A DNA stretch of 64,000 nucleotides from a virus (Duplodnaviria > Heunggongvirae > Uroviricota > Caudoviricetes), in the IMG/VR virus record IMGVR_UViG_3300046786_000604, positions 12,364 through 76,363 of that record; one strand, 5' to 3'. Positions 31,574 to 32,422 of this stretch are shown in pieces (position 1 is the stretch's first letter; the number at the start of each line of letters is the position of its first letter). Both the position numbers and the translations under genes were made by a program. Below the pieces are notes generated by a model, which searched no databases, was not told where the DNA came from, and saw only the letters and a program-made list of their open reading frames with translations.

Positions 31574-32422
31574 CTACTTGGTTAAGTTAATGAACGGCGT
31601 GGACCCGCCAACTACTTGTGGTAAGCCACCGTCCCACTTGCCAACCTTTTCATATTCAATTACTAAAGGATTGTTAGCTAACGCTTTACCTTTGATTGCA
31701 ATTGCTTCGGCATCGGCATGTGCTCTTAACAATGTAGATTCTGCATCACCTCGTGCTTCTTCGATTCGTTTCTCTGCTTCAGCTCTAGATTGTTGAACTT
31801 CTTGCTCTCGTTGCTGTGTCATCTGAATTGCCTGTGCATTACGATTGATCGATTCGACAATTGATGGAGGTAATCGCAAACTTCCGATCCAGTAAATGTT
31901 TTCAATATTGATACCTAAATCTTTCGTTTCAGCAATCACACGGCGCTTTACTGCATCAATTAAATCAGCTTTACCCGGACCATAAATATCTTCAATCTGA
32001 CGAGTAGATGCTTCTAACACTAATGCATCTCTAACCATAGATCTTAATACCGTATGTGTAATCTCATCAATACCTGACCGGTATTTTTGAAATATAGTTC
32101 CTACTTTACTAGGATCTAATGAATATGTAATACCAATATCAGTATTTACATTTAAACCTTTACTAGCTTGAAACGTGATTGAATCGTCATTAGGACTACC
32201 TTCGGTTTTATCTTGTGTCCAAACTTGAGTTTGTGTAAATGTTGGAAATTTGTATAGTTCATCATTCCAACCTAACCATTGACGACCTGGACCAACTACA
32301 TCCTGATCTACACCTTTATCACCGCCTAATTGGTGGACAACGATACCAACATAACCTGGCGGTACATAAGTACAACCTGACATCACGAATGCCATTGCTA
32401 ACACTGCTAAAATTTTCTTCAT
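31574..32422 (-). CDS. SPFH/band-7 (HflC/HflK/prohibitin-like) lipoprotein
   Basis: Lipobox LAVLAMAFVMSGC; SPFH core VLRSMVRDALVLEASTRQIEDIYGPGKADLIDAVKRRV and a C-terminal coiled-coil. Confidence 0.6.
   Translation of the reverse strand: MKKILAVLAMAFVMSGCTYVPPGYVGIVVHQLGGDKGVDQDVVGPGRQWLGWNDELYKFPTFTQTQVWTQDKTEGSPNDDSITFQASKGLNVNTDIGITYSLDPSKVGTIFQKYRSGIDEITHTVLRSMVRDALVLEASTRQIEDIYGPGKADLIDAVKRRVIAETKDLGINIENIYWIGSLRLPPSIVESINRNAQAIQMTQQREQEVQQSRAEAEKRIEEARGDAESTLLRAHADAEAIAIKGKALANNPLVIEYEKVGKWDGGLPQVVGGSTPFINLTK

Follow-up and report, generated by a model that had tools for sequence, protein, structure and literature searches.

Does a phage that encodes distant relatives of HflK/C and YccA, two bacterial modulators of the membrane protease FtsH, take control of that protease during infection? 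The question is raised by a stretch of 64,000 nucleotides from a Caudoviricetes phage (IMG/VR record IMGVR_UViG_3300046786_000604, positions 12,364 to 76,363), hereafter referred to as the window, which carries on its minus strand one gene for an SPFH/Band-7 lipoprotein of 282 amino acids (31574..32422) and one for a Bax-inhibitor-1 (BI-1)/TMBIM protein of 221 amino acids (52634..53299). A first-pass annotation had called these products an HflK/C-like protein and a YccA homologue, each behind its own early-type promoter, and had proposed that the phage acts through both of them on FtsH, or on membrane integrity.

The reading that we favor, with a probability of roughly 0.45, is that they are two independent, early-expressed envelope genes and not a dedicated pair of FtsH modulators. 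Taken alone, the SPFH gene is ordinary, as it belongs to a large phage family recorded twenty years ago. The useful part is the BI-1 gene, which exposes a lineage that neither PHROGs nor complete cultured phage genomes contain and that the literature searched does not describe.

The SPFH Lipoprotein

The first protein belongs to the SPFH family by both profile and architecture, and its description as an SPFH lipoprotein holds. It matches Pfam Band_7 (PF01145) over residues 20–216 with 84.5 bits, against a cut-off of 23.6, and the PHROGs family phrog_200, named “lipoprotein”, over its full length (residues 4–281) with 270 bits. A Pfam PAS_7 match on the coiled coil (23.5 bits, below the cut-off) was taken as spurious. 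The only hydrophobic segment, residues 4–22, coincides with a signal peptide and lipobox that were read from the sequence (32372..32422, minus strand; MKKILAVLAMAFVMSG/C17, ending in ..FVMSG/C17), i.e., the anchor is a predicted cleavable lipoprotein signal and not a transmembrane segment. Among 44 homologues C17 is invariant, with the consensus L-T-G-C, while the residue at position +2 is Thr in this protein (..CTY) and Ser in most of the others. By the sorting rules of E. coli, Thr or Ser at +2 of a lipoprotein directs it to the outer membrane.

The AlphaFold 2 model (pLDDT 79.7) consists of an SPFH domain of strands and helices (residues 17–183), a 65-residue helix (186–250), and a further short helix. 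The C-terminal tail is disordered in the model yet highly conserved, and its motif W263/G265/P268, invariant among the same 44 homologues, is compatible with a cap. A search of the PDB by sequence gave no match at E≤0.01. When the model was searched with Foldseek, the best matches were prohibitin (E=4e-14) and HflK/C (2e-12 and weaker), along with erlin, stomatin, flotillin, QmcA, and vault; identity was 13–19% throughout, and the E values ran from 4e-14 to 1e-7 over prohibitin, HflK/C, erlin, stomatin, flotillin, and QmcA. Every one of these proteins forms cages or rings, which makes a homo-oligomeric cage the obvious prediction, and the monomer model suggests that the phage protein may assemble as such a cage attached to the membrane.

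Regarding HflK and HflC themselves, the protein is not an orthologue of either. It scores 24.1 bits against the HflC model TIGR01932 (cut-off 134.4) and 20.4 bits against the HflK model TIGR01933 (cut-off 159.4), in both cases over residues of about 124–249 only, and the window contains a single SPFH open reading frame (ORF), with no K/C pair; the ORFs neighboring it match no Pfam family. These scores far below the cut-offs, the lipoprotein anchor, the single gene, and the lack of any structural preference for HflK/C together exclude orthology, so that “HflK/C-like” is valid at the level of the superfamily only. The proposal that this protein restrains host FtsH as a mimic of HflK/C can draw on that membership, on the presence of HflK/C cages (including structures 7vhq and 9cz2) among the structural matches, and on the fact that the SPFH domains of HflK/C are likewise periplasmic, but prohibitin, erlin, and stomatin fit the phage protein equally well and its lipid anchor, with an outer-membrane type of +2 residue, differs from the transmembrane anchor of HflK/C.

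The gene is one more member of a known phage family. Matches to phrog_200 were found in 407 phage records from many hosts, in temperate as well as virulent phages, at 44–54% identity. More broadly, SPFH/Band_7 ORFs were recorded in 2006 in the T4-like phages 44RR, Aeh1, and RB43 (PMC1524935), and outer-membrane vesicles were found to contain an SPFH protein of a Pasteurella prophage that its authors describe as HflK/C-like (PMC9872710). The idea of a link between phage SPFH genes and HflKC/FtsH is in print as speculation only (PMC8540360, PMC10269572), and the literature searched contained no mechanistic experiment on phage SPFH proteins.

A relative of the phage, contig L002, has a different SPFH lipoprotein of 260 amino acids (19497..20279 of that contig) with its own lipobox and 21% identity, in the slot downstream of the NAMPT gene that the SPFH gene of the window also occupies. 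At this conserved position, the gene has apparently been replaced or has diverged very fast. As the BI-1 protein of L002 is 71% identical to that of the window, a slot filled with so dissimilar an SPFH lipoprotein suggests selection on function rather than on sequence.

The Bax-Inhibitor-1 Protein

The second protein was correctly placed in the BI-1 family, with 176 bits against Pfam Bax1-I (PF01027; cut-off 34.1). Within this family it is of the YbhL/YetJ type and not of the YccA type. It scores only 43.8 bits against the YccA equivalog model NF007765, the cut-off of which is 353, and in BLASTP E. coli YbhL aligns over 212 residues with 109 bits and 35% identity, E. coli YccA over only 150 residues with 58 bits and 31% identity. 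Bacillus subtilis YetJ is matched by phmmer at E=6e-16. The AlphaFold 2 model (pLDDT 82, pTM 0.79) superimposes on YetJ in Foldseek with a template-modeling (TM) score of 0.80, a root-mean-square deviation of 2.6–3, and 28–29% identity, the next match other than YetJ having E=0.66.

The same assignment follows the residues. D176 and D203 of the phage protein, both of which the phmmer alignment also pairs with Asp, correspond to D171 and D195, the pH sensor of YetJ; among 33 homologues D176 is invariant and D203 is at least 90% conserved, whereas the corresponding residues of YccA are Glu and Ser. The name “YccA homologue” is therefore valid at the superfamily level only.

In alignments, the N-terminal tail before the first helix, of about 18 residues, lacks about 5 residues relative to the rest of the family. 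This comparison used database-called proteins only; tail lengths from ORF calling are inflated by upstream alternative starts and were discarded. FtsH is known to start degradation from a cytoplasmic N-terminal tail of about 20 residues, a point to which we return below.

A Phage Lineage of BI-1 Proteins

The BI-1 gene belongs to a set of phage sequences that the reference collections hardly sample. No PHROGs family matches the protein, relatives are absent from complete cultured phage genomes, and the matches in 50,697 phage records number six, all of them fragmentary. The viral structure library BFVD returned BI-1 matches from eukaryotic viruses only, without any phage protein, and the literature searched contained no paper on phage-encoded BI-1. 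In metagenomes the picture differs. Relatives at 70–92% identity were found on phage contigs of up to 108 kb and more distant ones, at 53–61%, on other phage-like contigs, and an alignment-based scan of IMG/VR identified at least 401 contigs that encode BI-1 relatives of about 50% identity. These genes stand among phage replication genes, their conserved neighbors coding for an ATP-dependent DNA ligase, a MazG-like protein, GTP cyclohydrolase I, a QueE-like protein, ClpP, and a 5'-3' exonuclease.

When one genome per bacterial species was searched, the best BI-1 matches among those listed were 37–48% identical and came mostly from Alphaproteobacteria. In a simple neighbor-joining tree of 92 viral and 80 cellular sequences, drawn from the matches listed, all 92 viral sequences fell in one clade and all 80 cellular ones outside it. 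On these sequence comparisons, there appears to be a large lineage of BI-1 proteins that is confined to phages.

One of the neighbors was seen repeatedly at a similar distance: of 80 IMG/VR BI-1 loci, 18 have a gene for the ClpP protease about 4 kb upstream of BI-1 (e.g., 6003..6623 of locus L053). This proximity is probably synteny within one phage lineage.

Transcription Units and the Shared Cassette

The claim of early-type sigma-70 promoters was borne out, as consensus promoters stand upstream of both units, and the SPFH gene has one of its own. The latter (32453..32481, minus strand; TTGACA-17-TACAAT) has 11 of 12 consensus matches, its −35 box overlapping the stop of the preceding ORF, while a strong intrinsic hairpin terminator with an 8 bp stem, 5 GC pairs, and a T-run (31542..31561, minus strand) lies directly downstream of the gene. 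The SPFH gene is a self-contained unit of promoter, gene, and terminator.

The same does not apply to BI-1, which is the second gene of its unit. The sigma-70-type promoter of this unit (53574..53601, minus strand; TTGACA-16-TATAAT, 12 of 12 matches, TG-extended) precedes an ORF of 76 amino acids (53316..53546, minus strand) with a prepilin-type (class III) signal, MKNMKG/FTPIE; BI-1 starts 16 nucleotides after this ORF and has a separate ribosome-binding site but lacks a separate promoter. The next consensus promoter (52603..52631, minus strand, 12 of 12 matches) begins 3 nucleotides past the BI-1 stop, with no terminator in between, and marks the end of the unit. Directly upstream of the unit is a gene for a membrane protein of 199 amino acids with a signal peptide and two transmembrane segments (53604..54203, minus strand; phrog_19575). 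Together with the 76-residue ORF and BI-1, it makes up a cluster in which all three genes code for membrane proteins.

This anatomy also bears on whether BI-1 might be a holin- or antiholin-type lysis protein, the alternative named in the first-pass annotation. The protein is indeed small, multi-pass, and of the inner membrane, but its gene belongs to an early, sigma-70-driven unit, the one murein-hydrolase-like gene of the window (10698..11498, with SLT and PG_binding domains) lies about 41 kb away, the protein matches no PHROGs lysis family, or any other family of that collection, and its seven-helix fold is that of YetJ (TM score 0.8). We find such a role hardly credible.

The first-pass annotation had also described a duplicated cassette of promoter and 5' untranslated region shared by the two genes. 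The duplication exists. Copy 1 (32420..32481, minus strand) runs from the −35 box to the SPFH ATG, copy 2 (53544..53601, minus strand) lies upstream of the 76-residue ORF, and the two align from the −35 box through the ATG; the window contains exactly two occurrences of the 21-mer AACAACAAAGAGTAAACAATG, versus 0.01 expected. As copy 2 drives the 76-residue ORF, the partner of the SPFH gene is that ORF, and BI-1 is paired with the SPFH gene only indirectly, through it. An 18-mer of the cassette also stands upstream of the gene for the 76-residue protein in five relatives (L004–L006, L009, and L010), and part of the shared untranslated region, AACAACA-R-AGAGTAAA, corresponds to a translation-initiation motif found repeatedly in this phage group. 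The arrangement varies among the relatives. One of them has an SPFH gene, 83% identical, that directly abuts the ORF upstream and lacks a promoter, and the upstream partner of BI-1 may be the gene for the 76-residue protein, an ORF of 45 amino acids, or one of 126.

The 76-residue protein scores only 16 bits against Pfam N_methyl, although the gene is called N_methyl in relatives L004–L006, and its sole homologue in a cultured phage, at 45% identity, is in Synechococcus phage BUCT-ZZ01. Among T4-like phages, 44RR, Aeh1, and RB49 have N_methyl ORFs, and in 44RR the ORFs 097c (N_methyl) and 098c (SPFH) are numbered consecutively (PMC1524935). A search of the SPFH protein, the BI-1 protein, and three neighbors against the defense models of PADLOC gave no match, and a reading of the locus as a defense system was dropped.

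Early phage lipoproteins are known to block the entry of other phages, and the SPFH lipoprotein, perhaps with the prepilin-like protein, might serve in superinfection exclusion or receptor masking. Such a function would suit an early-type promoter, a predicted periplasmic lipid anchor, a cassette held in common with a prepilin-like gene, and the consecutive ORFs of 44RR, and the very divergent SPFH versions in the slot of the relatives would be expected in an arms race; moreover, the SPFH gene of phage PhiSH19 adjoins an annotated superinfection-exclusion gene (PMC3220722). Against it stand the PADLOC result, the spread of the SPFH family over temperate and virulent phages with very different receptors, and the fact that BI-1 is left unexplained. 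In addition, phage exclusion is not known from any SPFH protein. On balance, we hold exclusion to be rather unlikely.

Linkage of the Two Genes to Each Other and to FtsH

Within the lineage, the two genes travel together. They are both present on the 77.1-kb source contig and on contigs of 63.0, 88.0, and 105.6 kb, and relatives at 70–99% identity keep both, on contigs of 63–106 kb. This joint retention counts in favor of a common action on FtsH. However, the genes lie 21 kb apart in separate units, an SPFH gene occurs within 10 kb of BI-1 at only 2 of 80 IMG/VR BI-1 loci, and SPFH is common in cultured phages that lack BI-1, as the 407 records with the former and the six fragmentary ones with the latter indicate. 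SPFH and BI-1 thus co-occur inside this lineage and are not coupled outside it.

Linkage to FtsH itself was found once. Phage contig L013 encodes a complete FtsH (295..2085 of that contig) and, some 4 kb away, a 58%-identical BI-1, whereas no full FtsH was found within 10 kb of BI-1 at the other BI-1 loci examined. FtsH relatives are encoded by 12 further IMG/VR contigs (L177–L188), with neither BI-1 nor SPFH within 10 kb; on these phage-like contigs, as on L013, the proteins have FtsH_ext, AAA, and Peptidase_M41 domains and the HEAGH motif. Likewise, no ftsH or SPFH gene was found within 3 kb of the 80 cellular BI-1 homologues. A general association of FtsH with BI-1 was rejected, L013 being a single case set against 12 FtsH contigs.

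Taken together, orthology, anchoring, structure, and gene linkage give no support to the claim that the phage targets FtsH through both proteins, i.e., that an HflK/C mimic and a YccA mimic jointly bind and restrain the host protease and reprogram inner-membrane proteolysis. Superfamily membership of the two proteins, their joint retention, and contig L013 speak for it; profile scores of 24, 20, and 44 bits (HflC, HflK, and YccA) versus cut-offs of 134, 159, and 353, together with the anchor, the single SPFH gene, and the gene distances given above, speak against it, and we judge it very improbable. The FtsH reading comes from family names only, the same ones that appear in the automatic COG labels of JGI on identical metagenome proteins, “FtsH-binding integral membrane protein” and “regulator of protease activity HflC”. 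Such COG-derived names (“FtsH-binding protein”, “HflC regulator”) should not be taken as function here. The other half of the proposal, an effect on membrane integrity, is reasonable.

A narrower version concerns BI-1 alone, which could act, independently of SPFH, as an FtsH decoy or inhibitor and in this way stabilize sigma-32 or phage proteins. FtsH is inhibited by YccA, which is at the same time one of its substrates (PMC7876416), and human TMBIM5, a Ca2+/H+ exchanger, binds and inhibits AFG3L2, an m-AAA protease and FtsH homologue (PMC9379554). By analogy with TMBIM5, which has a di-aspartyl pair like the phage protein, binding of the latter to FtsH is possible. Contig L013 would fit such a role, and so would the N-terminal tail of the clade, about 5 residues shorter than usual and reminiscent of the stabilized yccA11 deletion. 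On the other side, the phage protein is of the YbhL/YetJ type, for which the literature searched shows no link to FtsH, the adjacency on L013 was seen once, and neither the 12 IMG/VR FtsH contigs nor the neighborhoods of the 80 cellular homologues repeat it. We therefore regard a decoy role as possible but unlikely.

Proposed Functions

From family, fold, key residues, transcription-unit anatomy, and lineage conservation, we infer where the two proteins may reside, how they may act, and what the phage may gain from them, on the favored reading of two independent envelope genes. The SPFH protein would be exported by Sec, lipid-modified at Cys17, and left facing the periplasm; should the rules of E. 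coli hold for the host, which they may not, its +2 residue (Thr, or Ser in most homologues) would route it to the outer membrane. Its SPFH domain, coiled-coil helix, and conserved cap motif would build a homo-oligomeric cage on the membrane surface, in the style of prohibitin and HflKC, and this cage could fence off or stabilize a patch of the envelope during infection. The BI-1 protein, of the YbhL/YetJ type and with its di-aspartyl pH sensor intact, would span the inner membrane with seven helices and would most likely act as a pH-gated cation (Ca2+/H+) leak that adjusts the ion balance and the membrane energization of the infected cell.

Several points weigh against this reading. The position of Arg60 in YetJ is not conserved in the BI-1 protein, for which a YetJ-type channel activity is suggested by two conserved Asp residues. 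The outer-membrane sorting of the SPFH protein is extrapolated from E. coli and may not fit this host, and the predicted cage derives from a monomer model. Furthermore, two distant members of the BI-1 family do bind proteases of the FtsH type, in the YccA-FtsH and TMBIM5-AFG3L2 pairs cited above, which makes a protease link of the phage protein conceivable.

If phage BI-1 proteins were ion channels, or regulators of FtsH-family proteases, that prolong the life of the infected cell, they would link bacterial and eukaryotic virus-host biology. They would also offer a handle on the poorly understood YbhL/YetJ proteins of bacteria and constitute a new class of phage host-takeover genes.

Genome Context

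The source of the window is a large, virulent, T4-like phage that is uncultured. The phage origin of the DNA, part of the first-pass annotation, is confirmed by virion structural genes, a head-decoration-like gene, the NAMPT gene, and other genes of the window; the best structural match is with T4-like cyanophages, and a Gp38-type adhesin is present on related contigs. Megablast of the SPFH and BI-1 regions against the 50,697 phage records gave no matches, and hence there is no close cultured relative at the DNA level.

The window has about 34% GC and long series of small ORFs on the same strand. Besides the murein hydrolase with its SLT and PG-binding domains and an HNH endonuclease, it encodes a homologue of seryl-tRNA synthetase (40836..42110, minus strand), which is 60% identical to a gene annotated as serS in Acinetobacter phage MD-2021a. 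Three further genes of this auxiliary set, all on the minus strand, code for NAMPT (34884..36257), a bifunctional NMNAT/Nudix enzyme (59461..60477), and an ADP-ribosylglycohydrolase (43436..44425). A BCS1-like AAA ATPase with BCS1_N and AAA domains (38550..39881, minus strand; phrog_7485) is kept in the relatives.

Many of the small ORFs, of about 60–90 amino acids, are paralogues and form a very large family, found at 17200..29300 on the plus strand and at 34000..34750, 50600..52600, and 55000..56000 on the minus strand. They have a conserved C-terminal motif, ..E.H..WF.L(R/Q)W or ..FESEAHYHWFLLQ, and the stop of one overlaps the start of the following one (ATGA); three tandem copies (51896..52565) lie directly downstream of BI-1. 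Repeats of other kinds are also present. Several adjoining ORFs at 60543..63200 (minus strand) are made of tandem repeats of 69 nucleotides (23 amino acids) with a weak match to Pfam DUF6745, and a faint match to DUF6745 was likewise given by the gene for 126 amino acids directly upstream of BI-1 in relatives L001–L003. Finally, a structural gene contains three near-identical copies of a 72-nucleotide repeat (6294..6533) and a methylase-like ORF five copies of an 18-nucleotide repeat (12749..12856).

Comparison with Known Systems

The phage SPFH protein resembles the cages of HflK/HflC-FtsH, prohibitin, erlin, and stomatin in that a long helix joins an SPFH domain to a C-terminal cap region. 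HflK/C face the periplasm, as is predicted for the phage protein, but they have transmembrane anchors and two paralogous subunits, whereas the phage protein has a lipid anchor, a single gene, and 13–19% identity, and matches HflK/C no better than it does the eukaryotic cages. Its nearest counterparts are the other members of phrog_200, for example, those of Vibrio phage CKB-S1, Pseudomonas Mu-like phages, and Stenotrophomonas phage Pokken, which match over the full length and differ in nothing essential.

For the BI-1 protein, the closest known systems are YetJ and YbhL, of the pH-sensitive Ca2+ leak type, with which it has the seven-helix fold and the sensor aspartates in common. It differs from them in being phage-encoded, in forming a clade separate from all sampled cellular homologues, in its shorter N-terminal tail, and at the position of Arg60. 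E. coli YccA, the FtsH substrate and inhibitor, is of the same Pfam family and of similar length and topology, but it is without the di-aspartyl pair and its equivalog model scores the phage protein far below the cut-off. TMBIM5 is a BI-1-family member that does have the di-aspartyl motif, although it is very distant from the phage protein and mitochondrial.

A last comparison is with the TMBIM proteins of eukaryotic viruses, i.e., the BI-1 of giant viruses, the US12 family of cytomegalovirus, and the GAAP ion channels, which have the same fold (BFVD matches at TM scores of 0.7–0.8), the carriers of which infect eukaryotes, unlike the phage studied here. These well-known homologues provide a precedent, as eukaryotic viruses use BI-1-type channels to modulate cell death and Ca2+ (PMC4416878). 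It is conceivable, if distinctly unlikely, that the phage clade is the prokaryotic-virus counterpart of the TMBIMs of poxviruses, cytomegalovirus, and giant viruses, a “cell-death brake” that keeps the host alive and energized until progeny are made. In that case BI-1 would buffer Ca2+/H+ and the membrane potential against abortive-infection effectors, or occupy FtsH as YccA and TMBIM5 do with their proteases, and the capture of BI-1 by viruses would be a convergent strategy across the domains of life.

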